DNA of 64,000 bases from a virus (Duplodnaviria; Caudoviricetes), in the IMG/VR virus record IMGVR_UViG_2912740531_000001, positions 8,142 to 72,141 of that record. The stretch is one strand, 5' to 3'. The translations under genes and the position numbers were made by a program. The notes under the pieces were generated by a model. It was not told where the DNA came from. It was given only the letters and a program-made list of their open reading frames with translations, and made no database searches. Each line of letters starts with the position of its first letter. Within the stretch, counting starts at the first letter, position 1. Shown here in pieces: positions 10,279 to 60,478 of the stretch.

Positions 10279-11568
10279 ATGCCACCGTCGCGGTCATGGC
10301 ACGGACGGCCCGATGTCAGTGCCATGCCGCAGACTTGGAGGATGCACCGGAACGGCAGGCTGTTCAGCAGCGGGACTCTTCGCGACTATCTGCACAAGAA
10401 TCTCCAGAAGATCACCCAGGCGGTCGACGCATGGGATCCCGAGAAGTTCCTGATAACGACCGAGGCCGACGTCATCGAGGAACTGACGAACGCCTTCCGC
10501 ATCGTGGTGCCCACGCTCGACCGCGAGGGCGTCGGGATCGAGCCGCTGAAGCAGGGCTACGGAGTCGTCGAGAGACTCGGAGACTCCCTCAGGGTCGCCC
10601 AGAACACGGTCACACTGCTGGTTCCCTACACCGGAGACCGCGCCATCTTCGCCCTCCAGCCCAACCCCCACATGGAACCGGGACCACAGGGGACGGTGAC
10701 CGACACGGAGGTCAGGCTCGCCTGGACCGGCCAGAGCACGGACCACGAATTCGTACGCCGAGCCCTGGACGAGAGGATCAGCGAGATCACGAAGTGTCTC
10801 GGCTGGGCGCGGGCCAACGTCAACGGCTACAACGCACAGATCGAGCAGGTGATCCCTCAGAGGGTGCATGCCCGCAAGCAGGCTCTTCTTGCCAGCAGGA
10901 ACCTTGAGGCCTCGCTCGGGTTCCCGATCCGCAAGCGCACGGACGCCAAGACCTACGAGGTCCCGCTGGTCCGGAAGAAGATCAAGACGGAGTCCGCCGA
11001 GTCGTCCACGGACCCTTCGTTCAAGCCCGAGCATGTGCTCGCCGACGCGGACTACGAAGAGGCGCTGCGGGTCCTGAAGAACGCCCGTAATCAGCTGGAA
11101 CGCTCACCCTCGCTGGCCGGCAAGCTCGACGAGGAGGAGATCCGGGATGTGTTGCTCCTGGCACTGAACTCCCAGTTCGAGGGCACGGCCGCGGGCGAGG
11201 TGTTCAACTTCAAGGGCAAGACCGACATCCTCATCCGGGTCGAGGACAGGCACGTGTTCATCGGCGAGTGCAAGTTCTGGAAAGGCCCGAAGACCATCAC
11301 CGACACGCTGAACCAGTTGCTCGGCTATCTGACCTGGCGGGACACCAAGGCGGCCGTGCTGTTGTTCGTCAGGGAGAAGGCGTTCTCCGAGATCGTCTCC
11401 AAGGCCCTGGGGAAGCTGGAGGAGCATCCCAACTTCAAGCGGCGGGGCTCGACCAACGAGTTCGGCACCCGCCATGACTTCGTCTTCCATGTCGATGGAG
11501 ATCCGTCCCGCGAGGTCAAACTGGCCTTCCTTCCCTTCCACCTCCGCCAGGCCGACTCCGGCAGCTGA
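10279..11568 (+). CDS. PD-(D/E)xK restriction-like nuclease domain protein (start uncertain)
   Basis: C-terminal EEEIRD, GKTDILI, IGECKFW, NQLLGY motifs. Confidence 0.7.
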   Translation: MPPSRSWHGRPDVSAMPQTWRMHRNGRLFSSGTLRDYLHKNLQKITQAVDAWDPEKFLITTEADVIEELTNAFRIVVPTLDREGVGIEPLKQGYGVVERLGDSLRVAQNTVTLLVPYTGDRAIFALQPNPHMEPGPQGTVTDTEVRLAWTGQSTDHEFVRRALDERISEITKCLGWARANVNGYNAQIEQVIPQRVHARKQALLASRNLEASLGFPIRKRTDAKTYEVPLVRKKIKTESAESSTDPSFKPEHVLADADYEEALRVLKNARNQLERSPSLAGKLDEEEIRDVLLLALNSQFEGTAAGEVFNFKGKTDILIRVEDRHVFIGECKFWKGPKTITDTLNQLLGYLTWRDTKAAVLLFVREKAFSEIVSKALGKLEEHPNFKRRGSTNEFGTRHDFVFHVDGDPSREVKLAFLPFHLRQADSGS

Positions 11569-11616
11569 GACGGGCACGGTCAACGGTCAGACACAAGCCC
11601 CGTTCACAACGTTCCC

Positions 11617-12062
11617 GGCGCGCCCGTGCCGTCCCCCGGGCGCGCCGATCCGCGCGCACCCAGGCGCGCCTCGAGACCACGCGCCCTCACCCCGGCCGCG
11701 CCGCGCGCCAAAGCAGACGCGCCCTGGCGCGCGCCCTTGACCTGTACATTCCCGCAGGCGCGCCGCGCGCCTGATCGTGGCGCGGCTCGTCGAGCGCGGC
11801 CCCGGGAGATGACCGTGCGGGGCCCTGGTCGGCGCGCCTAGACGCGCGCGGGCTGCTCGAGGGTGAGCGCCCAGCGGCGCGGTGGGCCGCGCGGCCGCGC
11901 GCCGATCGACCGTTCCCGCACCGAGGACCGCGCCAGTCCCGCGCGCGGTCCAGCCTCCAGGCGCGCCCGGACATGACGAAGGGCGCGCCATCGGGCGCGC
12001 CCTGGGAGAGTGGACGATCGGTCGAGAGCGCGCCTACTGCGCGCCGGACCGGGCCGCGCGCC
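11617..12062. repeat. Dense cluster of GGCGCGCC/GCGCGC palindromic words
   Basis: GGCGCGCC near 11617, 11639, 11663, 11757, 11831, 11960, 11982 and 11994, with many variants, between convergent genes. Confidence 0.6.
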
Positions 12063-12855
12063 GGATGTCCCGACGGTCGCGGCGCTCCTGCTGCTTGGCG
12101 GCACGGTCCTCGCCGCGGACCTGGCGCAGGAGCGCGAGCAGTTCCTGGGGGTGGGCCTGGCCGAGGAGCTTGAGTGCCTGGAGCCGGTGGTTCGGCTCAC
12201 TCGGCATCCGCCCCTGGCGTGCGTCCGCGTACTGCACGGCGTAGCGCAGGAACGAGGCCTCGGTCTGCACGCGCTGCCGGAAGCCTTCGACCCGGCGCCG
12301 GTGAGTGGTACGGCTCTCGCCGGGCGCCGGCTCGGGCATGAAGCCGGCCGGATCCTCGAGCATCAGGCGGCAGATGTCCGCCGTCCTCCTGGCTACTCTG
12401 TGTGAACGGAACGCGAGCTCCTCGACCCGTGGTGACGTCGGCTCGGGCACCGGCTCCCCGAGGACCAATCCAGTCCACCGATCGGAGAAGGCGTCATCGT
12501 CCAGTGCCGCCAGTTCCTTCGCATGCTCGTGGGCCAGGTCGTCGACGACGTCCTGGATCGGGCCCATGGCGGCCTTGATCGCCGCCCGCCACGGCGCGAT
12601 ACGGGCCTGCTGCTGCCGCTTGGTCTCCCCCTCCTGGAGGGGGTTGTAGGTCTTCGCTCGCCGCCCGGCCGTCTCGAGGGCGAGGAGCGTACGCGGGGCG
12701 AGCAGGGGCGAACTGAAGGCTTCGCCCTGGACATCCCGAGGGACCCGCCGGTCGGTGCCGCCCGTGACGTAGGCGACGACCCTGTCCATGAATGCGTCGT
12801 CGCTCAACCGGGACAGACGCTGGATCTCGGCCGCGACCTTCCGCGCATCAGCCAT
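12034..12855 (-). CDS. Hypothetical helical protein
   Basis: Start re-called at MADARK after GGAGGAG; two similar halves (LSDDAF / LDDDAF; EGETKRQ / PGESRTT). Confidence 0.7.
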   Translation of the reverse strand: MADARKVAAEIQRLSRLSDDAFMDRVVAYVTGGTDRRVPRDVQGEAFSSPLLAPRTLLALETAGRRAKTYNPLQEGETKRQQQARIAPWRAAIKAAMGPIQDVVDDLAHEHAKELAALDDDAFSDRWTGLVLGEPVPEPTSPRVEELAFRSHRVARRTADICRLMLEDPAGFMPEPAPGESRTTHRRRVEGFRQRVQTEASFLRYAVQYADARQGRMPSEPNHRLQALKLLGQAHPQELLALLRQVRGEDRAAKQQERRDRRDIRRAARSGAQ

Positions 12856-13190
12856 AGGGGGTGCTCCTCCGTTTCGGGTAAGGCCCGTGCTCTCGGGCTC
12901 TGGGTGTGCCTGTAAACAGGGTGAGGTGGCCGCACGGTCGCGAAGAGGCGTAGCCGGATCATCGCAGGAGCATCCGCTCCCCGGCCCCGAGTGCTCTACA
13001 CGCACCCGGTTGATCGGCCCCGTCTTGGCCAAAGGCGACCACGGGCCGTAGGAACACCCTCTTCCGAGAGATGCGTGTCAGCCCATAAACCTTTGACCGG
13101 AGTCTCAGACGCGGTTCTTCGCGGCGGCAGTACGGCCACCTCGCTGCAGATGGTACCCGCCGGCCGGAGGACGGACGGGCGGCGTAGGCC

Positions 13191-13514
13191 TTACTCGGCC
13201 TGATGGGACGTCCTCTTGGTCGTCAGGGACTCGATCATCGGGGCGAGCTTGCTCGGCTTCCACACGAGGTCATAGCTCGTCTGGGAGGCAGCCAGTACAC
13301 CCAGGATCGTGACCATGGTCAGCTTGCTGTGCTGGAACTGATCCCAGCCTCCAGCCGCCGCCACGGCGAAGACGCCGGCCACGAGCGAGACCACGACCGC
13401 GACAGCCTTCTTGTACTTCGCCGACCAGGCCGGGCGCTGCACGACCGCGGTGAGCAGCGGGAGCACAGCGCCGACCTGACCGCCGGTGGAGAGAGCTTCG
13501 AGCGTTGGAGACAT
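13191..13514 (-). CDS. Holin
   Basis: About 107 aa, 2-3 TM segments, PLLTAVVQRPAWS pattern of actinophage holins; at the end of the virion module. Confidence 0.75.
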   Translation of the reverse strand: MSPTLEALSTGGQVGAVLPLLTAVVQRPAWSAKYKKAVAVVVSLVAGVFAVAAAGGWDQFQHSKLTMVTILGVLAASQTSYDLVWKPSKLAPMIESLTTKRTSHQAE

Positions 13515-13569
13515 GGTGTTGCCCTTCATGCGGGATTACGTGACGGGCGGACTGTGCGCGAGGTCGGTG

Positions 13570-13581
13570 CCTTACGTCGCG
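13570..13581 (-). promoter_or_regulatory. Phage promoter motif copy (CGCGACGTAAGG-N13-CACAGT)
   Basis: Upstream of the holin; one mismatch to consensus. Confidence 0.65.
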
Positions 13582-13588
13582 TCCTGAG

Positions 13589-13969
13589 TCAGCCGCTGGA
13601 CCCGTCGCCCAGGTCCTCGGCGATCTCCCGCGGCGGGGCAGGGGCGGGGCGCTCATAGAGCTTCACGACCAGGGCGCGGAGCTGGTGGATGTACTCGACG
13701 GCCGCGGCCTTCCAGCGCCTCCACTGCCGCTGTTCCTCCTCCAGACGTTCGACCCGGCTCTCGAGTGTGGCCACTCTGTCGAGCGTCTGCGCGTTCGTCG
13801 CGCGCTGCTGCTCGAGGAGCTGGGTGAAGCCCTGGGTCATGGTCTGTACCGAATCCACGGTGTCGGTCTTGCGCTGGTTCCCTCGGTACACCAGCCACGC
13901 CCCACCCAGCACGCCAGTCATGCCGAAGATCGGAGAGAGGACAGGCGCCAGAGAGGTGAGCAGCTCCAC
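13589..13969 (-). CDS. Membrane-anchored coiled-coil protein of the lysis region
   Basis: N-terminal TM helix then coiled coil; RBS GAGGAGG. Confidence 0.7.
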   Translation of the reverse strand: MELLTSLAPVLSPIFGMTGVLGGAWLVYRGNQRKTDTVDSVQTMTQGFTQLLEQQRATNAQTLDRVATLESRVERLEEEQRQWRRWKAAAVEYIHQLRALVVKLYERPAPAPPREIAEDLGDGSSG

Positions 13970-14070
13970 GGGGGCGCCTCCTCGGTCATCGGCCGTCGGT
14001 TGGGGTGCGCGGGAGCCGGGGCCCGAAGTCCCGCGGCTCCCCGCGACGATGACGTTGGAGGAGGGTGGTG

Positions 14071-14082
14071 GTTAGCGTCGCG
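14071..14082 (-). promoter_or_regulatory. Phage promoter motif copy (CGCGACGCTAAC-N13-CAACGT)
   Basis: Intergenic, consensus match. Confidence 0.75.
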
Positions 14083-14094
14083 TGCTGGCTGCCG

Positions 14095-15432
14095 TCAGAC
14101 TCCGTCGATCAGGCGCTCGGCGAGGTACGGGGAGAAGGTGCCTGCCGGGGTGTTGTCGGGAGCGATGCCACACTGGCCGTCCGAGTCGCCGGGGTACTTG
14201 ATCCACAGCAGGTACTCGGCTCCGCCGACGCCGACCGAGCTCGGGACTCCGAGACGGCGGCCGGCCGGGTTGCAGTAGTCGACGTGCTGCCCGTTGTCGT
14301 CCACCGCGCCGTTGCCGTTGCGGGCGGTGTCGATGACAAACTTCACGCCGGTCACGCCCGCGCTGGCGAGCTCGGTGACGACCTGGTGGCCGTAGCCGCA
14401 ACTGATGTCGGTGGCGTCGAAGTTGCTCACGCCGATCGCGATGCGCTCCGTCGACGCGATGCCGCCCTTGATGAGCCGGGCCGCCGTCTCCGCGGGCTTG
14501 AGCCACGTCGCGTTGCCGGCATCGAGGTAGGCCCGGACGAGCGGCTTGGCACCGAAGGCCTGCGCCGCGTAGGTCGACAGTTCATATCGCTTGTCGCGGG
14601 CCTCCTGGGTGGGCAGGGACTCGGCCTGGGCGAGGGAGTCGGGTTCGACGATGACGATGGCGGGCCGGTCCCCGATCCCGGCAACGAAGGCGTCGACCCA
14701 CGCCTTGTACGCCTCGGGGGTGAGCGCACCGCCGTGGGACTCGCCACCGTTGTCCCGCCAGTACATGTTGTACGCGGCTAGGATGGGCACCTTCCCGGCC
14801 GCGGCCGCCGCGGACACGTACGCGTCGACGTCGGCCTGGATGTTCTGATTCCAGTCGCCGAACCACTTGGCTCCGGGGCGCCGGGCTATCGCGTTGCGGA
14901 TCTTCGCGGCTCGCCCGTCGGTGGGGTTGAGGGCCAGCCACTTGAGTGCGTTGCTGTCGGGGTCGACGTAGAAGCCCTCTCGGACGGTCGACGTCGTCAG
15001 GCGGACCTCTGCGAGCGTGACGGTGACGGGCGTGCCCTGCCCCATCTGGAAGGACACCTGACCGGTGGTCGTGTCCAGGTCCGAGGTGAACGTGTAGACG
15101 AACGACGTGTCGACGGTGCCCAGGACGACGGTCTTGTCCAGGGCCGCAGTCCACGGGTCAGAGCCGAGGCCGACCTGGACGCGCAGCGAGGTGTTCACCT
15201 GGGAGGCGCGGGCGGTGAAGGTCAGGGTGTACGCGGCGCCCTTGCGCAGCACGATGCCGTCCTGCCCGAGCGGTGCGTCCCACAGGTTGACGGCGTCGGT
15301 CGTGGCGGTCGCGTCCATCCCGCCGGCGGAGCCCGCGGCGATGCTGACCTTGGCGGGGTCTCCCGCCCACCAAGAGGTGGTGCCGTTGCTGAAATCGTGG
15401 TTGCTGACGAGGTCGCCGTAGGTTCCGGCCAT
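14095..15432 (-). CDS. CBM4/9 plus glycoside hydrolase family 6 (cellulase-like), no signal peptide
   Basis: GH6 motifs YNMYWRD, IVIVEPDSL, FVIDTARNGNG, YCNPAGRRLG, LWIKYPGDSDG; N-terminal LVSNHDFSNG and YTLTFTARAS CBM4-like module. Confidence 0.9.
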   Translation of the reverse strand: MAGTYGDLVSNHDFSNGTTSWWAGDPAKVSIAAGSAGGMDATATTDAVNLWDAPLGQDGIVLRKGAAYTLTFTARASQVNTSLRVQVGLGSDPWTAALDKTVVLGTVDTSFVYTFTSDLDTTTGQVSFQMGQGTPVTVTLAEVRLTTSTVREGFYVDPDSNALKWLALNPTDGRAAKIRNAIARRPGAKWFGDWNQNIQADVDAYVSAAAAAGKVPILAAYNMYWRDNGGESHGGALTPEAYKAWVDAFVAGIGDRPAIVIVEPDSLAQAESLPTQEARDKRYELSTYAAQAFGAKPLVRAYLDAGNATWLKPAETAARLIKGGIASTERIAIGVSNFDATDISCGYGHQVVTELASAGVTGVKFVIDTARNGNGAVDDNGQHVDYCNPAGRRLGVPSSVGVGGAEYLLWIKYPGDSDGQCGIAPDNTPAGTFSPYLAERLIDGV

Positions 15433-15451
15433 GGGCGGGTGGTGCTCCTTG

Positions 15452-17908
15452 CTACTTGGTGAAGGTCACCCGCAACTTGGGCGGGTAGGTCTGGCCGGCG
15501 CCTCGGAAGATGCCGTAGTACGTGCGATTCGTGGTGTTGGGGTCGAGCGCGATTCCGCGCCATCGCGTCGAGTCGAAGACGCTGGTGATGTCGACCCACT
15601 TGCCTTGATTCCGGGCCCACGAAATGGTCTTGACCTCGCTGTCCGAGCTGAACGTTGCGGGTCGGGAGGTGTGTGGGTGGGCCTTGATGACGGCCTTGCC
15701 GCCGCTGGCGTAGTACCAGTGCTCGGCGTACAGGTAGACCTCAGCTTTGACGATCTTTGCGCCGGACAGGTCGGTGCCAAGTGCGGAGGGGAAGCCGATC
15801 AACGCGGACTGGATGCCGTTATTCGAGGAGTAGTAGCCCTGAACGCACTTGTTGCCGTAGTAGGCGTTGTAACCGGCGCGCTTGGCGTACGACCCGGACC
15901 ACGAGGCCGTGTAGGTCTTTGTGTAGGTTTGCACGGGTTCGGCGGCGCTTCCGCCGCCGGTGTTGTATCCACCGGTGACGGGGATCTCCGGGCCGGTGTC
16001 CTCGATGTAGAAGACATTGCTGCGGCCGGTCGTGCTCAGCCCAAGGTCGAGGGTTTGCCCGCTGCTGCCGCCTGAGTTCTCGAAGGAGAGCAGCAGGCGG
16101 TGCAGACCGCCGCCGAGCGTGGTGCCGCTGGCGTTGTACTCCAAGCTGACTTGCTGGTAGCGGCCGGTGTGGGCGGGCGTGTGGATCGAGGTCTGGCGCA
16201 GCGTCGAGGTGATGGTGGGCTTCGAGGTGCCCCCGTCGCGCAGGTAGAGGCGGATCTCTCCGTCCGTGGCGTTGTCGAGGTTTGCGGTCGCTCGGAACAC
16301 GACCCGGTAGAGGCGTCCGGCCTCGGCGGTGAACGGCAGCTCGTAGTAGCCCATTTCGCTGCCCGTTGCGGTGACCGTGGATGTGGGGTGTGCGCGCGCG
16401 ACGATGCCCTTGGGGCCGGCACCGATCAGGGCGGAGACGGGATCGCCGCCTACGGTGAGGTCACCCGCGACGTTGAGGTCGGCGAAGTTGCCATTCCCCG
16501 CGGTGTCGATGGTTGCCACGGCGGTGCCGTCGGTGCGCAGGGTGAGGTACTGCGGCGCGCCAGTCACCAGAGCGACGGCTTCTTGCCCGGTTTCGTCGAA
16601 CAGGCGCAGTCCCTGGGGGCCTACTTCGGCGCGGGCGCCGCCGATCGCGCGGCCGAAGACCGGATGTACTTCCGCGTTGTCCCACACGGCCCATCCGCGG
16701 GTGGCGGCCGAGGCCTCCAGACACAGCACGGCCTGCGTGGTGCCGGTCGGGGCGGCGACTTGCCCGGTGATGCGCTGCCATCGACCCGGCTCCGGTGTGG
16801 TCGTCTCCACCACGCCATAGCCGAGCACGGTGCCCGCTGCGCTCTCCCAGCGGGCGAGGATCTTCACCGCCTGGGCGACGATGTCCTGCGAGACCAGTAT
16901 GTCGACGCCGAGCCAGAGTTGCGTGCGGGACAGGACCGGGACCTTAGCCAACGGCAGTGTGAAGTATGTAGGGGTGTCGGCGGTCAAGTCGCAGTTGATG
17001 CCGACTCCGAAGCGGTTGCCGGGGGCCAGGGCCCAGGGCGCGCCGCCCGCGGCCACGATGTTCGCGGTCGCCGCGGTCTCGAAGGATGGGTCGGGGATCA
17101 GGTTGGTGCCCTGGCCTACGGCAATGTGTTCGGGCGTGACGGCCCCGACGGACAGGTGCGTGGTGTTCACGGCCCCTGCGGCGATTTTGCCGGCGGTCAC
17201 GGATTGCGCCTTTAGCTCTCGCGAGGAGATCGTGTCGGCGGCGATCTTCCCGGCGACCACGGAGTTCGCGGCAAGCAGGTCCGCACCGATGGTCTCCCTG
17301 ACCAGCTTGGATCCGGGTACGGACGCGTCCTTGAGCCACACGGCCAGGTCAAGCAGCGCGGACAGGTCGGGCCCGTCGACGGCGCGTGGGGTGCCGGCGA
17401 CTACGGGCGAAGCCTGGCCGGTGATCTCCGCGGTATTTGCGGCGACGAGCCGCACGTACACGGTGTTATAGGCGGCGGTCGCCACGGTGACAGTGCCGCC
17501 CGCGGTGTTGCTGATCGTCGCCGCGAGCGTCGTTGCATCAGGAGCGAAGTTCTCGGTGAGGCCGATGTGCACTTGGATGCGAGCGAAGTCGCTGGGGGTG
17601 GCGTAGGCGTCTTCCCATTGCCCGTCCCAGGTGACGATCAGTCCGGCGAGTACCGGCTCGAGAACCGGTGCCGTGGGGGTGGGCGGCGGGGTGGAGTTGA
17701 CCGCGACGACGGCCACCGCTCCGTCGTCCTGGACACCGACGGAGCCGCGCAGCACTCCGCCCTCGTCGTAGATGTCGAGGGAGCCGCCCTCGATGGAGGA
17801 GTAGCCGGCCTGCGCGGTGCGCTCTACGGCTTGTATCCGCCGCTCAAGGTCGGCCAGGACCTGGGCGAGGCGCCGTGCGTCCGACTGGATGTCCAGAAAG
17901 TTGGCCAT
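15452..17908 (-). CDS. Tail fibre / minor tail protein
   Basis: N-terminal coiled coil, FN3-like segment, VTAGKIAA repeats, NLIPDPSFE carbohydrate-binding-like domain. Confidence 0.8.
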   Translation of the reverse strand: MANFLDIQSDARRLAQVLADLERRIQAVERTAQAGYSSIEGGSLDIYDEGGVLRGSVGVQDDGAVAVVAVNSTPPPTPTAPVLEPVLAGLIVTWDGQWEDAYATPSDFARIQVHIGLTENFAPDATTLAATISNTAGGTVTVATAAYNTVYVRLVAANTAEITGQASPVVAGTPRAVDGPDLSALLDLAVWLKDASVPGSKLVRETIGADLLAANSVVAGKIAADTISSRELKAQSVTAGKIAAGAVNTTHLSVGAVTPEHIAVGQGTNLIPDPSFETAATANIVAAGGAPWALAPGNRFGVGINCDLTADTPTYFTLPLAKVPVLSRTQLWLGVDILVSQDIVAQAVKILARWESAAGTVLGYGVVETTTPEPGRWQRITGQVAAPTGTTQAVLCLEASAATRGWAVWDNAEVHPVFGRAIGGARAEVGPQGLRLFDETGQEAVALVTGAPQYLTLRTDGTAVATIDTAGNGNFADLNVAGDLTVGGDPVSALIGAGPKGIVARAHPTSTVTATGSEMGYYELPFTAEAGRLYRVVFRATANLDNATDGEIRLYLRDGGTSKPTITSTLRQTSIHTPAHTGRYQQVSLEYNASGTTLGGGLHRLLLSFENSGGSSGQTLDLGLSTTGRSNVFYIEDTGPEIPVTGGYNTGGGSAAEPVQTYTKTYTASWSGSYAKRAGYNAYYGNKCVQGYYSSNNGIQSALIGFPSALGTDLSGAKIVKAEVYLYAEHWYYASGGKAVIKAHPHTSRPATFSSDSEVKTISWARNQGKWVDITSVFDSTRWRGIALDPNTTNRTYYGIFRGAGQTYPPKLRVTFTK

Positions 17909-17935
17909 GGGCGCGGATGCTGGACGTTGGCCATG

Positions 17936-17947
17936 GTTAACGTCGCG
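17936..17947 (-). promoter_or_regulatory. Phage promoter motif copy (CGCGACGTTAAC-N13-CAGCAT), probably leaderless
   Basis: ATG of the tail fibre lies 8 nt after the -10 box. Confidence 0.75.
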
Positions 17948-17974
17948 CGCTGCCCGGCGAGGACATCCGCCGGG

Positions 17975-19189
17975 TTAGTAGTGGAAGCTGTCGGAGCGCT
18001 TCAGGAACAGGGTGCACAGGCCGTCTGCGCTGATTTCGTCGCTGACGATGCGGTGCCACACGTCGACGTCGCCGACCCATGGCACGTGTACTTGAACGCG
18101 GATGTCGTCGCCCAGGGCCCAGGAGCCCAACCGGGCGTTGGGGTGGTCGATGATCTGGATGGCGGGGATCTGCAGGGCCTGTGTTCGGCCGGCCAACTCC
18201 TGAGTGCCCCGGGTGCGCAGCGACTTGTCCGACGACAGTGTCTTGTCGGCGACGGTGGCAACCCGTCGCAGGCGCCCGTCGTAGCGGTAGACCTGCGCCC
18301 GCTTCATCTTCCGGCCCTCGCCTTTGCCGAGCACGATGACTTCGTTGGCGTACTCGTCGCCCATGCCCTCGGGCTTGGCGATGGCTGCGATGTTCTCGCC
18401 GTCGGCGAATCGCAGGTCTTTGCGCTTCCTGCCGATCCGCGGCTTCCCCAGGATCAGCCGGTGCTGGATTTCGTTGCCGCTGCCGGTCCAGGCGTGCGTC
18501 TCCATCCAGTCGAATGGGGTGTCCCTGGCAAGGGCGTCGAGGGCTTGGCCACAGTCGGGGGCGTTCCACCAGGCGAGTTCCCACGGGTCGGAGCCGTCCG
18601 CGGCGCCCAGCTTCTCGCCCAGGTCGTGGGTGTCGACCTTGAGCCCGATGTTCCCGTAAGGGCGTGACTGGACGTGGCTCCAGATGTTCCGGAAGGCGTC
18701 GTACACGTCGATGCGAGGGCCGCCGTACGGCTTCGGCGGGGGTGGCACCCGCTGCTTCCCCTTTTGCCCGTCCACCCAGCCGTCATGGTTCTTGTCCTTG
18801 CCTGCATACGGGTCCTTGGGCGTGATCAATGCGCCGGAAATCATGTAGCTCTCGTACGGGATGCCCTGCGGGTAGGCGGAGAAGCCCTCGCAGTAGATGG
18901 AGGCCTTCGGCCCGTCGTACGCCGTTTTCGTGACGATGCCGCCCCACCGGATACGGCCGTCGATCTCCAGGTACAGCTTGGTACCCCACTCCTGCAGGAT
19001 CGGCTTGCCGTCGGAACCGATCATGCGGGCGTACTCGGGTTCGATGGTGCCGTTCAACGACCCCGGCCCGGACAGATCCCGTCTCGGGTTCGAGGCCAGA
19101 GCGAGGGGTACCTCCCAGTCCAGGATGGGCTCGGTGGCGGCCCGTCCCCCGCTGGCCCGCTGCGCGATGTACCGCCAGCCCGTCGGCAC
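17975..19189 (-). CDS. Minor tail protein (siphovirus Gp37-like hub)
   Basis: RDLSGPGSL, IRWGGIV, YANEVIVLGKGEG, ALGDDIRV; position after the distal tail genes. Confidence 0.8.
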   Translation of the reverse strand: MPTGWRYIAQRASGGRAATEPILDWEVPLALASNPRRDLSGPGSLNGTIEPEYARMIGSDGKPILQEWGTKLYLEIDGRIRWGGIVTKTAYDGPKASIYCEGFSAYPQGIPYESYMISGALITPKDPYAGKDKNHDGWVDGQKGKQRVPPPPKPYGGPRIDVYDAFRNIWSHVQSRPYGNIGLKVDTHDLGEKLGAADGSDPWELAWWNAPDCGQALDALARDTPFDWMETHAWTGSGNEIQHRLILGKPRIGRKRKDLRFADGENIAAIAKPEGMGDEYANEVIVLGKGEGRKMKRAQVYRYDGRLRRVATVADKTLSSDKSLRTRGTQELAGRTQALQIPAIQIIDHPNARLGSWALGDDIRVQVHVPWVGDVDVWHRIVSDEISADGLCTLFLKRSDSFHY

Positions 19190-19190
19190 C

Positions 19191-20165
19191 TCAGATCTCC
19201 TCGTCGTCCGGGGCCTCGACGAACTCGACGTCGGCGATGATCGACGTCCCGGCGTCCACGGAGACGTCCCCCGTCTCCGCCTTGTACATGTAGGTCTGCA
19301 GGCGGAGGGTCTGCGTCGTGCCGCGCTTGGACGATGGCACGCTCATGTTGTCGGCCACCACGACGGTTTGGCGGCGAATATTGGCGCCTTGGTCGTCATC
19401 AATGACTGTGTCCTGGCCAGGGTCCCCACCAAAGACGCTGTGCATCTTGGCGAAGACGTCAGCCCTGGTGAAGCGCAGGCCAGCCACGGTGACGACGATC
19501 TTCGCGCGGGTGGCCCACAGCGGCACGTCAATGTCCCAGCTCGCCACACCGGGCCAGTTGTGCCACTTGTTATCGGAGTAGCCGAGCGTGCTCAGTGACG
19601 TAGGGAAGACGGTGTAGAGGCGACGGTCCCGCCGCGGACTCACCATCGACCGCAGATCCTTGATCATGGCCTGAGTGATGGCGCTGGTGTTGGCCGGGAT
19701 GTCGATACGGGCGAGCGCAATGGCGGAGTCCGATGCGCGCACTTGGCTGACGCGTGTTGTCGTGCGGGGCACGCCGCTGATGACCCGGGTGAAGATGTAC
19801 GGTCCCACCGTCGGATCCGCTGGATTGGGCCACGTCTCCCCGAAGGAGTACGGGTTCTCGACCCGAGCCACGATGAGATCGGAGCGGGGAGATACCCCAG
19901 TCGCAGCGATGTCGACACTGTCGGCCGTCGGCAACCGCCCCGCGTACGCCTGATACGCCGCGCCGGCGGCCCGGTTCACGATGGCGCACGCCCCGGTCGT
20001 CACCTGCACTTCGGCCCCGGGAGAGGACAAGGCTCTCACTCGCAAGTCTCTGGAGCCGACCACGCCCTCCGCCCCTCCGAACGCGGCGAACGCCAGCAGG
20101 CGCGCAACCTCCGAACTGTGCTGGGCGCCGCCCTCGGTGAACCACGGCACGCTGTCCCACGCCAT
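19191..20165 (-). CDS. Minor tail protein
   Basis: PRSDLIVARVENP and IALARIDIPANTSAITQAMIKDLR typical of actinophage minor tails. Confidence 0.8.
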   Translation of the reverse strand: MAWDSVPWFTEGGAQHSSEVARLLAFAAFGGAEGVVGSRDLRVRALSSPGAEVQVTTGACAIVNRAAGAAYQAYAGRLPTADSVDIAATGVSPRSDLIVARVENPYSFGETWPNPADPTVGPYIFTRVISGVPRTTTRVSQVRASDSAIALARIDIPANTSAITQAMIKDLRSMVSPRRDRRLYTVFPTSLSTLGYSDNKWHNWPGVASWDIDVPLWATRAKIVVTVAGLRFTRADVFAKMHSVFGGDPGQDTVIDDDQGANIRRQTVVVADNMSVPSSKRGTTQTLRLQTYMYKAETGDVSVDAGTSIIADVEFVEAPDDEEI

Positions 20166-20242: not shown

Positions 20243-21184
20243 TCACAGGTAGGCGTAGGCGTCCCGCCAGGCCACCGTCATGTAGGCCGTGCCGGTTGCG
20301 TCAGTGCCACGCAGCACAAAGTCCTGCGTGCCCAGGGGGAGTTTCATGTCCTTCAGCCGCGGCGTGCCGCGGGTGAGGAGGCCGGCCACCGAGGCGTTGC
20401 CGTTACGCAGCACGGTCCGTGCCCAGGGGCGGGTGTCAATCACGACGCGTTCACCGACTCCGAGGGTCAGGTCGAGTCCGGCCTTCCAACGGCCGACGAC
20501 GTCACACACGGGATTCGTGATCGGGCCGTAGATCGTGATGACCGGCCAAGCGGGCTTCGTACCACCCACCGTGACTTCGCCAGCAACCTTCCCGGAGCCC
20601 TCCCCGGTCATCGTCAATGGCGTCGTGAGCGGCCCCACCAGGCCGTGGTGATCGGGTGGCACCAGATCGATGCGAACCTTCTGCTCGACATCGTCGTAGG
20701 CCGTGGAGTCCAGACATACAAACGTGCACACCACGGGTGTGTAGCCCTGCCGAGTCAGTTTCGATCCGGCCGGTGCCGCCTTCCGCGGGCGTCCGTAGAA
20801 GCGGCGGGCGCGGCCGCCCTGCGTGGTCCTGAGTACCGCTGGGGTGGCGAAGCGTCTACGGACCGCTTCGGCGTCCCAGGCCTGCAGCATTGTTGACACG
20901 GCACTGAGGTTCGCATCGTGTCGCCCGAGCTGGGTCGGGGCCTCGTCGACAGCGTCCACGCCCACCTCGAAGGTGATGGTGGCCTGGCCGCGGTAGTCCT
21001 GCCCGAGCCGGGCCCCGTCCTCCTGCGGCATGGGCACGTCGCCGGCGTCGACGTCGGCGTAGGTGATCTCGTACGGCTCGATCAGGTAGTAGCCGGACGC
21101 GATAGTGCCGAAGGTGAAGTTCGCGCCCGGGTGGACCTCGTTGGCGCTGTAGGAGAGGTTCCATTCGCCCTCACGCAGTGGCAT
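20243..21184 (-). CDS. Distal tail protein (Dit-like)
   Basis: Immediately after the tape measure; AWPVITIYGPITNP and VAWRDAY. Confidence 0.8.
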   Translation of the reverse strand: MPLREGEWNLSYSANEVHPGANFTFGTIASGYYLIEPYEITYADVDAGDVPMPQEDGARLGQDYRGQATITFEVGVDAVDEAPTQLGRHDANLSAVSTMLQAWDAEAVRRRFATPAVLRTTQGGRARRFYGRPRKAAPAGSKLTRQGYTPVVCTFVCLDSTAYDDVEQKVRIDLVPPDHHGLVGPLTTPLTMTGEGSGKVAGEVTVGGTKPAWPVITIYGPITNPVCDVVGRWKAGLDLTLGVGERVVIDTRPWARTVLRNGNASVAGLLTRGTPRLKDMKLPLGTQDFVLRGTDATGTAYMTVAWRDAYAYL

Positions 21185-24100
21185 GTGCACCTCCTCGACG
21201 GATACGGCGCAGCTCGAACAGGGCGCTGTTCAGGGCGTCGCCCGGAGTCATCGGGGCGCCGGTCATGGTCAGGTTGAGGTCACCGCCGACGAGTGCAGCG
21301 GCGGCCGGGGCGGTGCTCACCCGGGTGCGGGCTGCGCTTGCCGTGTTGGAGCTGCGGACGGCACCGGAGGCGTACTGGCGCATGGCTCCCTGGGCGAAGT
21401 ACACGACCTGGCCACCGAACATCTCCGCGACCCGCTGGAGGATGGCCTCGCTGCGCTTGCGTTTGCTGGGGGCCAGGGGGATGTACGCCTCGCCCTGTGT
21501 CTCCGGCTCATTCCATATGCGTATTTCACCCGGCTTTCCGATCTGTGCGATGTGCCGTTCGGCGCCGGCCGCGAATGCCTTGATCCGGCTGGCAGCCGCG
21601 CGGATGCCGCCGTTGGCGTAGTGGACGATGCCGCCGTCCGCATGCGTCCGCACAACGGAGGGCTTGCCTGACTCGCTGTACTGGACGGTGACGTGGATGG
21701 TGCGGCCGGTGAGTCCGTTGATGCGGTCCTGGATGCGCTGCACCTGGGCCAAGGGCGTGGCGTTGGGCGCCGTGATCTCGATCTTCTTGCCCTTGAGGTC
21801 CTTGACTTTGTAGCCGAGATCCTTGATTGCCTGCTGTGCTACCGCGGTCGGCGCTTCCATCTTGAGCTTCTTGCCGGGCGGCAGACCGGCGACCTTGTCG
21901 CGGATCGCCTGGAGATCGCCGGTGGCCTGCCTGATGATCGCCTGGACGGTGACCTTCTTCTTGTTCGGGGCGGTGGCGATGTCCTTGGACAGGGCGGCGA
22001 TGTTCACGCGCGCCCCGCCGGTCGGGGCCGTGACCGACACCTTCTTGCTGCCAGGAATCCGCTGCACGGTGAAGCCGAGGGCCGCGAGCTGTGCGCGCGC
22101 CTCGGCCGTGGGCGCCTTGATCTGTACGGCCTTGCCGGGCGGGAGGCTCTCCAGCTTGCTGCGCAGGCCGAGGACCTCGGCGGTTGCGGCCGGGATTCCC
22201 TGAGCGGTGACGAGGGTGGTGATGGTGTCCGGGATGAATCCCATCTGGTCGGCGAGTGCCTTGGCCTGGTCCTTGGGGATGCCCATGCTCGTGGCGAGTT
22301 CAATGGCCTTCGCACGGGCCCGCTCCATCGCCCCATTGCTCTGGTCCATGGCCTGGGACATCGGTATGAGGCCCTGCTCCCCGGCCTCCATCGCCCGGGT
22401 TGCCACGCCCAGCATGCTGTCGCGCAGCTCCTGGAGCTGCGTGTTGAGGGTCTGGCCATTCCGGGAAGCGGTGTTGACCAGTCCGTCGGCGCCGACGAGG
22501 GCCTTCCCCCAGCCTTCGGCACGCGTGATGTTGCCCTTCATGGTGTCATCGACCTGGAGCATCACGGCGTTGAGCTGGGCCTGAGCGTCATGGAAGCTCT
22601 GCGTGTTGCCGTTGAGGGCATCCAGTGCCCGCTTGAGGGCATCGGTGCGTTCGTCTGCCGTCTTGGTCTTGTCACTGAAGGTCTGCACCGCGGCCTGCAG
22701 GCGGGTGTAGGAGTCCGTGCCGGTGGTGCCCGACTTGTTGATTGCGTCGGCGAGTTCCTTGTGCTTCTTCTGGCTCTCCTCGAGCTCACCCTTCACGGCG
22801 CCGAGGGCGTCCTTCGCGCGGATCGCGGCCAAGCCCTCGTCGTCCCACGACTGCGCAGCTCCCTGCGCCGTGGTGATCCACTCTTCGTGGTCGTCGGCTG
22901 TCTGCTGGAGCTGCTTCTGCAGCTCTCCGAGGGTCGTGCCCTGGCCGAGGTAGGCGTTCGTCAGCTCGCCGAGGCTGACGCCCGCCTTGCGCATCATGTC
23001 GACCAGCTTTCCCTTGCCGTCGGCGAGCTCCGTGTCCTGCAGGAGCTGCGCGGCCTGGGCGCGGACGTTCGCGTCGATCGCGCCGCCGGACGCGACCAGA
23101 GCATCGGTCAGGGACTTCACTCGTTCCTGGTGAGCCTGGGTGGCACGGGCGGCTTCTTCCTGCCGGGAGGCGAGGAGGCCGAGACCGATGGTGATGCCCG
23201 CGATGGCGAGACCGAGCGGACCACCCAGGGCGGACGTGATGCCGCCGATGGCCCTGGAGGCAACCCTGTTGGCTGCGCCGATCCCCCGCAGTGTGCCGGT
23301 CAGCCGGTTGCCCTGCGCGGCCGCGCCGGAGTACGCCAGGCCCATGCGCTGCCACATGGTGATCTGCGGGCCCATTACCCCGGCGCCCATGGTGCCGCGC
23401 ATGGTGGTGCCGAGCGTGCGCACGGAGGTACCTGCGGCCGTGACCGAGGTGCCGAAGGAGCGCAGCATGCCGGCGACGCCGCTGATCACCTTCAGGGCGA
23501 GCATCGTGCCCAGGAACGTGGCCAGGACCGTGGTCGCCCCCGGGACGATGTTCATGATCGAGTTGAAGACCTCGAGTAGCCCGCTGAAGGCCAGGAGCAG
23601 TACACCGAGGCCGGTTCCGGCGGACGACAGGTTCCCGATCGCTGTGGCGATGTTCGAGATGACGGAGATGAGCGCGGGCCCGACGGATTGACCGAGGGCG
23701 TTGAAGAAGGTGCCGAGGGCAGGCATCAACTCGGTTCTGATCTGTCGGACCAGGTCGAGGATTCCGCCGTCCCGCATGGACCGACCGAGCCCGCGCATGA
23801 GGTCCCCGAACAGGGCGTTGACCTCGTGGAAGACGGGCGCCGCGTCGCTGAAAAACTGCTCCATGGCGCGCTGGCCGGCGCCCGAGGTCGCCCAGCGCTC
23901 AAACCTCAGCATGCTGCCCTCGAGCCCGTCGAGCAGCGCGTTGCCGGTGTCCATGGCCGCGCGGCCGACACCACCGAGTCCCTTGATCAGGCTGCCGGTG
24001 GTCCGACCGAGCTGCGCGGCCTTGTCTCCCGCGTGGTCTAGGAACTTGGCGAGGCTGCCGGTCTCCCGGCCGGCCTGCACGGACGCCCGGAACCACTGCG

Positions 24101-25208
24101 TCAGTCGCTTGCCGCCCTTGGCGACCCGCTCAGTGAACGGCCCGGAAGCCACCAGGAAGTCCAGAGTGGCGCGGCCCATGTTGGCCAGGCCGTCCGTCAT
24201 GTGGCTGATGACGCGGGAGTTGGTGCCCGCGATCGTCTTGAAGTCCCTGCGGAACGGACCGGTCTGCATGAACTTCGCGCCGCGCTCCGCCAGAGACCCC
24301 ATCTGGGAGGCCGAGTCGCCCAGGGCGTCCTCGAGGAGCGGGAACACCGACTTCGCCAGGGGCTTGATGTCGTCGGCGACCTTGCTGAAAAACCGCTCGC
24401 TGACGGCCATGCGGACCTTGCCCCACGCCACTTGCAGCGAGGACACCGCGGATACCGCCTCACGGGCCGAGGGAGAGAGCTTGTCCAGCGCCTCCTTGAC
24501 CTTCTTCTGCTGCGCCTCGGTGACCTTGCCGTCCCGGGCGAGCATCTGCTGCGCCTTGACCGACTCCTTGAGGGCGTCGCCGAAGCCCTTGAAGGCGACC
24601 GTCGTGCCGATCGCCGCGGTGGCGCCCGCTGTGATCAGGCCGGGTATCGCGCCGAGGACACCGACCGCGGGCGCGGCCGCGGAGACGAGGGCGGTCAGCC
24701 CGGCGCCGTACTGGCCGATGAGGGCGACCGCAGGCTGCAGCAGGGAGACGACGGCGCCGACACCGAGCATGCGCAGGCCACGGCCGCGGCCCGGCAGGCG
24801 GAAGTTGACCGGGACGTTGACCGGGTTGCGGTCGGCTTCGCCCTGGGCGCCCGCGATGAGTCCGCGGAGTCGGCCGAGGAGTCCACCGCCCGAGCCGTCG
24901 CCGTCCCCGTCCGGGCGGACGGGGAGGTTCAGGTCGGCGTCGTCGATGCGTCGTCGGATGCCGTCGAGGGAGGCGCGGAGCCGGTCCTCGTCGATCTCGA
25001 CGCGGATCTTTGCGGTGACGCCCTTGGACGCCTCCTTGACCGCTTCCTTGAGCCGTCGCTTGAGGCCCTTGGAGTCGACCTCGACTTTGACCTTGGCGGC
25101 CAGACCTTCGGCGGCCGTCTCGACTGACGTGCGGAGCTTCTCCGCGAAGCCGGCCAGGTTGGCGACGACCGGAACTTCGAGACGCCCGGCCTGCAGGCCC
25201 TCAGCCAC
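21171..25208 (-). CDS. Tape measure protein
   Basis: 1345 aa, Ala/Gly-rich helical, hydrophobic centre, C-terminal HADGG/YANGG and EPETQGEAYIPL. Confidence 0.92.
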   Translation of the reverse strand: MAEGLQAGRLEVPVVANLAGFAEKLRTSVETAAEGLAAKVKVEVDSKGLKRRLKEAVKEASKGVTAKIRVEIDEDRLRASLDGIRRRIDDADLNLPVRPDGDGDGSGGGLLGRLRGLIAGAQGEADRNPVNVPVNFRLPGRGRGLRMLGVGAVVSLLQPAVALIGQYGAGLTALVSAAAPAVGVLGAIPGLITAGATAAIGTTVAFKGFGDALKESVKAQQMLARDGKVTEAQQKKVKEALDKLSPSAREAVSAVSSLQVAWGKVRMAVSERFFSKVADDIKPLAKSVFPLLEDALGDSASQMGSLAERGAKFMQTGPFRRDFKTIAGTNSRVISHMTDGLANMGRATLDFLVASGPFTERVAKGGKRLTQWFRASVQAGRETGSLAKFLDHAGDKAAQLGRTTGSLIKGLGGVGRAAMDTGNALLDGLEGSMLRFERWATSGAGQRAMEQFFSDAAPVFHEVNALFGDLMRGLGRSMRDGGILDLVRQIRTELMPALGTFFNALGQSVGPALISVISNIATAIGNLSSAGTGLGVLLLAFSGLLEVFNSIMNIVPGATTVLATFLGTMLALKVISGVAGMLRSFGTSVTAAGTSVRTLGTTMRGTMGAGVMGPQITMWQRMGLAYSGAAAQGNRLTGTLRGIGAANRVASRAIGGITSALGGPLGLAIAGITIGLGLLASRQEEAARATQAHQERVKSLTDALVASGGAIDANVRAQAAQLLQDTELADGKGKLVDMMRKAGVSLGELTNAYLGQGTTLGELQKQLQQTADDHEEWITTAQGAAQSWDDEGLAAIRAKDALGAVKGELEESQKKHKELADAINKSGTTGTDSYTRLQAAVQTFSDKTKTADERTDALKRALDALNGNTQSFHDAQAQLNAVMLQVDDTMKGNITRAEGWGKALVGADGLVNTASRNGQTLNTQLQELRDSMLGVATRAMEAGEQGLIPMSQAMDQSNGAMERARAKAIELATSMGIPKDQAKALADQMGFIPDTITTLVTAQGIPAATAEVLGLRSKLESLPPGKAVQIKAPTAEARAQLAALGFTVQRIPGSKKVSVTAPTGGARVNIAALSKDIATAPNKKKVTVQAIIRQATGDLQAIRDKVAGLPPGKKLKMEAPTAVAQQAIKDLGYKVKDLKGKKIEITAPNATPLAQVQRIQDRINGLTGRTIHVTVQYSESGKPSVVRTHADGGIVHYANGGIRAAASRIKAFAAGAERHIAQIGKPGEIRIWNEPETQGEAYIPLAPSKRKRSEAILQRVAEMFGGQVVYFAQGAMRQYASGAVRSSNTASAARTRVSTAPAAAALVGGDLNLTMTGAPMTPGDALNSALFELRRIRRGGAHATA

Positions 25209-26176: not shown

Positions 26177-27010
26177 TCACGCGTAGGTGAAGCCGCCGGT
26201 CTTGGTGACGCTGCCGCCCGCGGTCGTGACGATCACGTCCTTGGCGCCGGAGGTGCTGGCCGGAGTGGTGACGGTGAGCTTGGTGTCGCTCTCGACCGTC
26301 AGGTCGGTACCGGCCGTGCCTCCGAAGGTCACGGCGGTCGCGGTGTCGAGGTCGGTTCCGACGATCATGACGGCAGTGCCGCCCGCGACCGGGCCCGTGC
26401 TCGGCGTCACGGTGGCGATGGTGGGCACCGGGGGTTGGAATGCCGGGTCGTCCGTCAGCACGTACCACGGATCCGTGTCGTCGCCACCCTGGACGGCCAG
26501 GCGCAGCGGGAGCACGGACTCCTTGGTCTTGGCGAGATCCTTGGAGACGCCTTCCATCTGCATGGTGCGAGGGATGACGTAGCGGTAGTGCTTGCCGCCG
26601 TCGATGATCTCGATGCACCCGGCGATTTCAGTGCGGCCCCCGATGCGGGGCGGGGCGAACTTGAAGTGCTTCGGGCCGCCCCCGGAGGGGGTGACGGCCG
26701 TGATGCGGCCGCCGCCGTACACCGCCCGGAAGTTCTTGCCGGACCACTGCTGCAGGTCCACCTCGACGGTCGCGGCATCCGTCGTCTGGAAGGTCCGGGT
26801 GGGGTACGAGGACTGGGCGCTGCGGACCTGCTCGAAGTTCGGCTCAGAGTTGAACTTGAGCGAGTCTTCGGTGAACAGGCCGACTGTGTACCAGCCCGCG
26901 GGCATTGCCACCGTGGCATCGGCCGGGGCTGCCGTCCCGACGGGGGCCAGCCACAGGCGGCTGAGCTGAGGGATGAGAATCTCGTTGTTGTTCGTGGTCT
27001 CGCCAGCCAT
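26177..27010 (-). CDS. Major tail protein with C-terminal IPT/TIG domain
   Basis: LWLAPVGTAAP and GLFTEDSL tail-tube pattern; PTIATVTPSTGPVAGGT to GGFTY IPT domain. Confidence 0.85.
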   Translation of the reverse strand: MAGETTNNNEILIPQLSRLWLAPVGTAAPADATVAMPAGWYTVGLFTEDSLKFNSEPNFEQVRSAQSSYPTRTFQTTDAATVEVDLQQWSGKNFRAVYGGGRITAVTPSGGGPKHFKFAPPRIGGRTEIAGCIEIIDGGKHYRYVIPRTMQMEGVSKDLAKTKESVLPLRLAVQGGDDTDPWYVLTDDPAFQPPVPTIATVTPSTGPVAGGTAVMIVGTDLDTATAVTFGGTAGTDLTVESDTKLTVTTPASTSGAKDVIVTTAGGSVTKTGGFTYA

Positions 27011-34593: not shown

Positions 34594-34695
34594 TTGGGGT
34601 GCTCTCCCTGATGCTGGGGGCGGTTGACGTGCGTCGCTCGCCCGGCCAGCACCGGGACGCCTCAACGCGAGGCGGAATGGAAAGGGGAGACTGGG

Positions 34696-50783: not shown

Positions 50784-50809
50784 GCCGCGGACCATGCACA
50801 CCGGAGGTG

Positions 50810-50855: not shown

Positions 50856-51107
50856 TTACATGGTCTCGGTGAGGATGTGCAGCAGGAACCACGCCGCGCC
50901 TCCGCCCAGAATGACGGTGAACAGCGCGCGGCCCGCCTTGGAGCTGCGGATCCGGAACAGCTTGCGGGTGTTCTCGCTGAGCGTGTCGTCGTCCTTCTTG
51001 TTGAATAGCGCGATGGCCTCGTAGACGAAGAAGAACGCCGTCCATGAGCCCCAGAGAAGTGCGCTGGTGTTCCTGCGGATGAAGGCGAGGGTGCGTCTCA
51101 CAGTCAC
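50856..51107 (-). CDS. Small two-TM membrane protein
   Basis: GTGA overlap with the portal stop; DTLSE motif between two hydrophobic helices. Confidence 0.65.
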   Translation of the reverse strand: MTVRRTLAFIRRNTSALLWGSWTAFFFVYEAIALFNKKDDDTLSENTRKLFRIRSSKAGRALFTVILGGGAAWFLLHILTETM

Positions 51108-60356: not shown

Positions 60357-60478
60357 GGGGCTCCAATCGAGGGGGGTGGTGTACCTGCGCCATGACCTGG
60401 GATCGGATGTCGTCCGGGCCGCCGGGCAGGGGGCCTGCCCCCGGCTGTGGTTGCGCACAGGGCGCCGGGGGCAGGTGT

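Follow-up and report, generated by a model that had tools for sequence, protein, structure and literature searches.

What a cellulase gene without an export signal is doing among the tail genes of a Streptomyces prophage is the question raised by a 64,000-nucleotide (nt) stretch of DNA, positions 8,142 to 72,141 of IMG/VR record IMGVR_UViG_2912740531_000001, which is referred to throughout as the window. On its minus strand, at 14095–15432, the window carries a gene with an ATG start for a 445-amino acid (aa) protein, P0001, in which a carbohydrate-binding module (CBM) of the CBM4_9 type is joined to a catalytic domain of glycoside hydrolase family 6 (GH6). The gene follows a putative tail fibre gene and has an orthologue, gp72, in the isolated Streptomyces phage Gilgamesh. 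We tentatively read P0001 as a tail-associated phage depolymerase aimed at the beta-1,4-glucan which CslA and GlxA produce at the tips of the host hyphae.

The enzyme and its gene

The first-pass annotation of this DNA described an intact, signal-less CBM4–GH6 gene starting about 20 nt after the stop codon of the fibre gene, and this description stands: the 445-aa open reading frame (ORF) contains both domains, and 19 nt separate the fibre stop codon (TAG, 15452–15454) from the GH6 ATG (15430–15432). Within this gap, 12 nt 5′ of the ATG on the minus strand, lies an AAGGAG hexamer (15445–15450) that probably serves as the ribosome-binding site. The N-terminus of the protein, MAGTYGDL, already belongs to the first strand of the CBM, and no signal peptide is seen by eye. 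The frame stays open for just 11 more codons upstream (456 versus 445 aa) and offers no earlier in-frame start, so a signal peptide could not be accommodated. A search of window positions 11500–18000 turned up no promoter-like site, a simple scan of the minus strand found no terminator after the gene, and the GC content at third codon positions (GC3) is similar to that of the neighbouring genes.

By every sequence and fold feature examined, P0001 belongs to GH6 and CBM4. Pfam places CBM_4_9 (PF02018) at residues 7–131 (15040–15414, minus strand; 64.9 bits against a cut-off of 25.9, E 1.2e-17) and Glyco_hydro_6 (PF01341) at residues 172–423 (165.7 bits, cut-off 27, E 2.8e-48), while no PHROG family matches the protein. 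As delimited by phmmer and Foldseek, the catalytic domain spans residues 153–438 (14119–14976, minus strand) and is of the endoglucanase type. In a phmmer search of the PDB this region matches 6FAO (3.4e-59), Thermobifida fusca Cel6A (1TML, 2.2e-51) and Mycobacterium tuberculosis Cel6 (1UP0, 1.4e-47), and the N-terminal module matches 1GUI and 1CX1. An AlphaFold2 model built from 75 sequences has a mean predicted local distance difference test score (pLDDT) of 88.6. Its catalytic domain agrees well with the endoglucanases 6fao, 1up0 and 1tml (Foldseek template-modelling score TMt 0.87–0.91, 35–41% identity in the structural alignment) and poorly with the exo-acting T. fusca Cel6B (TMt at most 0.56), and its CBM, a beta-jelly roll like that of the CenC CBM4, is closest to the Cellulomonas fimi CBM4 1GU3 (TMt 0.82), followed by 3k4z. 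The GH6 domain is thus predicted to have the open, endo-type form rather than the long-loop exo form. None of this makes the domain call new, as the name 'glycoside hydrolase (family 6)' is already given to these proteins in GenBank and RefSeq.

The GH6 motifs, including the Asp of EPDS, had been reported as intact, and D227, D265, D304 and D418 are indeed all present; together with K412 and R371 they align to their counterparts in 1TML. The EPDS motif occupies residues 263–266 (14635–14646, minus strand), with the codon of Asp265 at 14638–14640. Among 48 proteins of the phage type (described below), D304, D418 and K412 are invariant, D265 is kept in 47 and D227 in 46, and D265 is also present in 70 of 70 cellular homologues. 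We take D265 to be the catalytic acid, the roles of the GH6 Asp residues being those familiar from T. fusca and Hypocrea jecorina and their positions being set by alignment.

Of 23 conserved residues specific to the phage clade, 13 fall in the CBM, and its binding specificity may therefore have shifted. CBM4_9-like modules are common in phage tail fibres, and in a structural search of BFVD the best 50 matches to P0001 were all made through the CBM of about 150 residues, none through the GH6 domain.

The prophage and phage Gilgamesh

The window corresponds to G000:C1:3963087-4027086 in a 9.96-Mb genome assembled as a single contig. BLAST searches with pieces of Streptomyces phage Gilgamesh (MN234216 / NC_073461, 129 kb, host S. 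lividans) outline a collinear prophage of about 115 kb at approximately G000:C1:3957110-4071946, and between window positions 12000 and 30000 Gilgamesh covers 99% of the DNA at 81.6% identity. Gilgamesh gp72 (QFG13264.1, 'glycoside hydrolase') is the orthologue of P0001 over its full length (84% aa identity) and occupies the same place, behind gp67 (tape measure), gp68, gp69, gp70 and gp71. The two differ in that Gilgamesh is an isolated phage whereas the copy encoding P0001 lies in an integrated prophage, and in one extra small gene, gp73, that follows the GH6 gene in Gilgamesh. Our literature search found no paper on phage Gilgamesh.

In a phage collection of 50,697 records, P0001 matched only Gilgamesh (under two accessions) and one unverified gut scaffold. 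The latter, MT836874.1 ('Bacteriophage sp.', from human faeces), is unannotated and its viral nature is unverified; a 297-aa ORF in it (L059:742-1635) lacks a CBM and shares 41% identity with the catalytic (GH6) half of P0001. Elements like Gilgamesh also occur as separate contigs of 125–150 kb in many Streptomyces assemblies and once as a plasmid (NZ_CP054917.1), and genes for ParA/ParB and for two tyrosine integrases are present in Gilgamesh itself. Taken together, these features point to a family of phage-plasmids, represented here by a chromosomally integrated member.

Origin of the phage-type GH6

Homologues of P0001 fall into two tiers. The first consists of 47 further proteins of the phage type (P0002–P0048; 432–445 aa, 58–85% identical), all from Streptomyces, and two truncated forms (P0049 and P0050). 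The next begins at about 50% identity and contains proteins of 450–510 aa from Streptomyces, genera of the Myxococcus type, Nonomuraea and Micromonospora. Judged by eye, all 48 phage-type proteins begin directly at the CBM, whereas a hydrophobic or lipoprotein-like leader of 20–50 aa precedes it in most of the 70 listed cellular relatives; a few of these, such as P0079 and P0087, have none, perhaps as a result of start-site calls. All 70 cellular relatives have the cysteine pair C228/C272 and none of the 48 phage-type proteins does, a disulfide having been lost in the phage clade; a second pair, 387/421, has been kept. The absence of both leader and disulfide is in keeping with folding in the cytoplasm.

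A maximum-likelihood tree of the GH6 domain was built from 65 rows, comprising every second phage-type and cellular protein, P0049, gp72 and three GH6 paralogues of the host. The 27 phage-type rows form one clade (Shimodaira–Hasegawa-like approximate likelihood-ratio test, SH-aLRT, 99) that is sister (91) to secreted Streptomyces proteins of the CBM4–GH6 type. The tree has the host CslZ as its outgroup, and long branches lead to CslZ and to a second host paralogue, which leaves the deepest joins unsure. Derivation of P0001 from CslZ, the GH6 enzyme that the host associates with its apical glucan, is rejected on the basis of an identity of only 38% and its distant branch in the tree. A single old capture from a secreted Streptomyces CBM4–GH6 cellulase is the best explanation of these sequence relationships. 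Selection appears to have maintained the captured gene: against seven relatives, the ratio of non-synonymous to synonymous substitution (dN/dS; a rough Nei–Gojobori estimate in a codon-biased genome) is 0.22–0.59 with both domains constrained, which points to purifying selection.

Linkage to the tail fibre

The gene immediately 5′ of the GH6 gene (15452–17908, minus strand) encodes an 818-aa protein with a match to phrog_38009 ('tail protein', E 2.3e-26) and a CBM-like jelly roll at about residues 268–420. In its AlphaFold2 model (pLDDT 76.6), several beta domains are well folded and are linked by fibre stretches of low confidence. Of PDB entries, the central fibre gp20 of mycobacteriophage Douge (8zdq/8zdp, E 4.5e-11) matches the model best, and a CBM22 tandem comes next. 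Tail (central) fibre is thus a fair label for the protein. Further 5′, all on the minus strand, PHROG matches identify two minor tail proteins (17975–19189 and 19191–20165), a Dit-like protein (20243–21190) and the tape measure protein (21171–25208), in agreement with the annotation of Gilgamesh gp67–70 as a tail module.

The position of the GH6 gene was compared in eight related loci (one from genome contigs, one from IMG/VR and six from the genus sample described below) and in Gilgamesh. Scans with single proteins yielded just one genome locus and two viral loci, and the comparison therefore draws mainly on the genus sample. Every related locus that extends far enough shows the gene order tape measure, Dit, minor tail, minor tail, fibre, GH6, and in the eight loci and Gilgamesh the tail block ends with the GH6 gene. 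It begins 17–37 nt past the fibre gene in seven of the eight loci and 16 nt past it in Gilgamesh. The exception is plasmid NZ_CP054917.1 (L027, 151,949 bp), where a 4.3-kb insertion bearing four opposite-strand ORFs (L027:10236-14168) separates the two genes and has removed most of the CBM, leaving a GH6 catalytic remnant annotated as 325 aa. The genes 3′ of GH6, on the other hand, differ between the lineages. A sporadic insertion not shared by related phages, which would have undone the first-pass interpretation, was therefore not what the comparison found.

The genus sample consisted of 400 other Streptomyces genomes, drawn from a larger set, in which phage-type GH6 was called at E ≤ 1e-100. 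Six genomes carry a phage-type GH6 (62–71% identical) together with fibres 58–76% identical to the one in the window, and three carry a homologue of the cellular type (48–51% identical). The C-terminal 600 residues of the fibre are found in 13 genomes at 49–76% identity, six of which are those with the phage-type GH6. The enzyme accompanies all six fibres with at least 58% identity and none of the seven with 55% or less (49–55%). The GH6 gene thus appears to close the tail block and to be inherited with a particular type of fibre, independently of the lysis genes.

The seven elements without GH6 have longer fibre ORFs (870–1321 aa of open frame). Fibre homologues, of which there are some 300, including P0134 and P0152, come in forms of about 760–855, 980–1010 and 1300 aa; the long form contains the CBM-like module three times, and in the genus sample the long forms are those without GH6. 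The presence of GH6 and the number of CBM repeats in the fibre are therefore anticorrelated, which we regard as a lead, given that the genomes are few and related to one another.

Lysis genes

The GH6 gene had been described as standing where an endolysin would be expected. This part of the first-pass annotation does not survive, as the prophage has a canonical endolysin of 352 aa with Amidase_2 (5.2e-12) and PG_binding_1 (5e-05) domains at G000:C1:3960275-3961333 (L009:5276-6334). This gene is 16 kb away from GH6 and lies outside the window, 1.75 kb ahead of its first base. The accompanying remark that no amidase, peptidase or muramidase is visible is correct for cell-wall enzymes inside the window, where a Pfam scan of 32 ORFs found no peptidoglycan hydrolase domain and a prohead protease as the only peptidase; it does not extend to the prophage, whose amidase lies just outside. 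The corresponding gene in Gilgamesh, 12.6 kb past gp72, is gp88, annotated as 'lysin A' and as having an amidase domain. The prophage endolysin gene adjoins a gene for a single-stranded DNA-binding protein and has no obvious holin gene nearby, which is unusual for a lysis gene of an actinophage.

In three relatives (L024, L025 and L026), the gene for an Amidase_2 protein of 289–318 aa lies 1.2–1.4 kb 3′ of GH6, with one for an 88-aa membrane protein behind it; the DNA between GH6 and the amidase gene is variable and of lower GC3. A further locus (L010) has a 488-aa protein with a PG_binding_1 match about 1 kb 3′ of GH6. P0001 itself has only the CBM_4_9 and GH6 domains and no peptidoglycan-cleaving domain. 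Since GH6 and a canonical lysin coexist, the former does not replace the latter, and the idea of P0001 as an endolysin substitute is rejected, both on the separate amidase of this prophage and on the pairing of GH6 with Amidase_2 in the three relatives.

Directly 3′ of the GH6 gene, at 12034–13969 on the minus strand, are three genes that were characterised by Pfam and PHROG scans and by hydrophobicity. p126 (126 aa) combines one hydrophobic segment near its N-terminus with a coiled coil, and 'hol-like' is among its weak PHROG matches; p112 (112 aa) has one clear hydrophobic window; and p332 (332 aa) belongs to no family found. GH6 had been placed upstream of a membrane protein and a holin: the membrane proteins are there, and the holin label is plausible, with p112 as a candidate. 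In the window and in Gilgamesh the p126–p112–p332 trio lies downstream of GH6, with the lysin 13–16 kb away, and in six of the seven relatives without GH6 the fibre gene is followed by one small ORF and then by homologues of the trio. The same downstream genes are therefore found with or without GH6. The trio may be a holin or lysis-control unit, or a tail accessory.

The host glucan

The host has three other GH6 genes. One (L028:6732-7838, 47% identical to P0001) lies in a GH10/GH62/GH43 cluster, and another (L029:5974-7179) is 41% identical. The third (L030:6298-7488), 38% identical, is the host CslZ, beside a GlxA-type oxidase and a GT2 cellulose synthase-like gene. The host thus has a cslA–glxA–cslZ locus, in line with the first-pass annotation, and the proposed substrate would be available. 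P0001 is not itself an orthologue of CslZ by its features, having no cslA–glxA neighbour and no lipoprotein leader, and possessing a CBM.

The glucan made through CslA is described in PMC9040799 as lying at hyphal tips outside the peptidoglycan, where it shields the tip peptidoglycan from lysozyme, and as being required for pellet formation. In the same text CslZ is a lipoprotein without a CBM, which reduced the turbidity of S. coelicolor peptidoglycan in vitro and showed no peptidoglycan binding. CslA and GlxA, which have been studied in S. lividans, are reported to make cellulose in vitro, and CslZ to be active on peptidoglycan, celluloses and alpha-chitin (PMC11022532). For an endo-type GH6 with a CBM4, the apical CslA/GlxA beta-1,4-glucan is most likely the target.

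Proposed function and alternatives

In the proposed mechanism, a secreted Streptomyces cellulase would have been captured once and would have shed its signal peptide and one disulfide. The enzyme would be made in the cytoplasm late in infection with the tail proteins, as the position of its gene and the 19-nt spacing imply. Having no export signal of its own, it could reach the cell surface only on the virion or at lysis, through the action of the amidase and the membrane proteins. There the CBM4 would bind beta-glucan chains and the GH6 domain would cut them endo-wise, which may expose the wall or a receptor at the hyphal tips and give the tail access. Because the gene comes and goes with the fibre variant, irrespective of the lysis genes, we lean towards an enzyme carried on the tail as an accessory to the co-inherited fibre, over one that acts only in free form.

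Several observations weigh against this proposal. The seven related elements that have the fibre and lack GH6 indicate that the enzyme is not essential to this type of tail. P0001 begins at the CBM and has no recognisable anchor or adaptor domain by which it could be attached to the virion. When the profiles of its CBM and of the fibre were compared, no similarity emerged (hhalign probability 1.5%), and homology between the CBM and the CBM-like module of the fibre is rejected on that ground. Fusion of GH6 to a tail protein was seen in none of 19 longer homologues, all of which are cellular GH9–GH6 or GH6 proteins with at most 51% identity; this negative is weak evidence. In at least three relatives an amidase gene lies 1.2–1.4 kb downstream of GH6, and the gap between tail and lysis genes is also the usual site of accessory ('moron') genes and lysis accessories. 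A GC-rich inverted repeat about 50 nt past the GH6 stop codon folds no better than shuffled sequence (z −0.66), and so gives no evidence of an operon end at this point. Finally, the in vivo identity of the apical glucan is, according to PMC11022532, not settled.

The alternative that survives best is a free soluble enzyme, released at lysis by the holin and the amidase, which would strip the glucan of neighbouring hyphae or loosen pellets and so let progeny escape and find fresh tips. An analogue of such a lysis-released enzyme is PghP, the poly-gamma-glutamate hydrolase of Bacillus phages. The architecture of P0001 is that of the free cellular enzymes minus their leader, and it is the missing attachment domain and the missing tail-fused form that lead us to treat this alternative as a real, if somewhat unlikely, possibility. 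In the three relatives with a nearby amidase, moreover, GH6 stands at the junction with a lysis cassette of Amidase_2 and the 88-aa membrane protein, and the glucan that would be removed is one needed for pellet formation (PMC9040799). On the other side, the gene stays 16–37 nt behind the fibre gene even where the lysin is 13–16 kb away, the stretch that separates it from a nearby amidase is variable, and it occurs with one fibre variant whatever genes lie downstream.

An action of P0001 on peptidoglycan, as a tail-associated wall-piercing enzyme or a second endolysin, is kept alive by the turbidity result with CslZ on S. coelicolor peptidoglycan and by the further activities reported for CslZ on celluloses and alpha-chitin (PMC9040799 and PMC11022532). 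Neither the tail genes nor any of the 32 window ORFs scanned, moreover, gave a match to another peptidoglycan hydrolase domain. However, P0001 shares only 38% identity with CslZ and groups in the tree with classical secreted endoglucanases, its CBM4 is nearest to glucan-binding CBM4 modules (1gu3, 3k4z) while CslZ is described as having no CBM and as not binding peptidoglycan (PMC9040799), and the prophage already has a canonical amidase endolysin. We consider this alternative improbable.

Slightly less probable still is a cargo cellulase in an accessory slot, freed by lysing lysogens for the digestion of plant cellulose by the host or having no current role; descent from cellulases of the saprophyte type, the seven related elements without GH6 and the NZ_CP054917.1 copy, with its CBM cut off by the 4.3-kb insertion, would fit, but the loss of signal peptide and disulfide in 48 of 48 copies, the lack of a promoter-like site in 11500–18000 with the gene 19 nt from the fibre gene, a GC3 like that of the neighbours, and a deep clade with a fixed position under purifying selection all speak against it. 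The probability that is left is shared by readings such as another beta-1,4-glycan as the substrate.

If the depolymerase reading of P0001 is extended to its relatives, a widespread Gilgamesh-like family of temperate Streptomyces phages or phage-plasmids (115–150 kb) might target growing tips of hyphae via CslA/GlxA cellulose, with the CBM-like modules of the fibre and the tail-carried CBM4–GH6 enzyme binding and cutting it. We put this forward as a conjecture that is at present rather doubtful. If true, it would make bacterial cellulose the primary receptor and barrier for phages of a Gram-positive, filamentous host, and it would explain the two extra CBM-like modules in the fibres of the relatives without GH6.

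Other genes of the prophage

Beyond the tail genes already described, the window contains the genes for the tail tube (26177–27010), the capsid (33298–34665) and a portal–MuF fusion (51104–53566). Between the portal–MuF and capsid genes is an ORF of 4250 aa (38049–50801, minus strand) with no Pfam match at E ≤ 0.001, the counterpart of which in Gilgamesh is gp48 (4624 aa, 'hypothetical'); its product may be a giant virion protein or an ejected protein. A 646-aa protein (34818–36758, minus strand) combines a prohead serine protease domain (Peptidase_S78) with a NUDIX domain and corresponds to Gilgamesh gp52, annotated just as 'hydrolase'. The prophage also contains an aldo/keto reductase gene and a thymidylate synthase-like gene, at 55113–55886 and 59331–60482 respectively, both on the minus strand.

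Relation to known systems and implications

Outside phages, the nearest counterparts of P0001 are the secreted CBM4_9–GH6 endoglucanases, with which it shares the two domains, the fold, the catalytic Asp, K412 and R371, and an endo-type domain of about 290 aa. It differs from them in its identity of about 50% at most, in having neither leader nor C228/C272, and in its place in a phage tail operon. Among phage enzymes, the mycobacteriophage esterase LysB, an accessory lysis enzyme encoded within the lysis cassette and directed at a non-peptidoglycan layer of the envelope, is comparable in that such an enzyme is found near the junction of tail and lysis genes in addition to a separate peptidoglycan hydrolase; the P0001 gene, unlike that of LysB, remains beside the fibre gene where the lysin gene is located at a distance. 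From a classical tailspike P0001 differs in having no anchor and no beta-helix. With CslZ it shares the GH6 family, the organism and, as proposed, a link to the apical beta-1,4-glucan (PMC9040799), but CslZ is a lipoprotein without a CBM encoded beside glxA and cslA, whereas P0001 has a CBM4, no leader and the context of a tail module.

The literature searched gave no account of a GH6 enzyme in a phage, of a signal-less and disulfide-less phage GH6 clade or its place behind a tail fibre gene, or of a link between actinophage infection and the apical glucan. PMC11302927, which deals with the Samy prophage and pellet dispersal, makes no mention of glycoside, hydrolase, cellulose or cslA. The sole functional precedent found is Erwinia phage S6, which is reported to need bacterial cellulose for infection, as its first receptor, and to encode two cellulases, gp094 (GH48) and gp095 (GH5, with extra N-terminal domains) (PMC9544554). 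S6 shares the principle proposed here, that of phage beta-1,4-glucanases acting on cellulose made by the host. It differs in its GH families, its Gram-negative host, its nature as an N4-like podovirus and its experimental support, where P0001 is known from sequence and models.

How phages pass the Streptomyces envelope, and why infection is restricted to young growing hyphae, are poorly understood. A conserved cellulase that lacks an export signal and is tied to a fibre gene would be the first sign that actinophages handle the apical glucan layer enzymatically, and it would extend the idea of bacterial cellulose as a phage receptor or barrier beyond Erwinia phage S6. The idea is directly testable, as Gilgamesh, with its gp72, grows on S. 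lividans, the species in which CslA and GlxA have been studied (PMC11022532). The enzyme could also serve as a tool for the removal of tip glucan and the dispersal of pellets.

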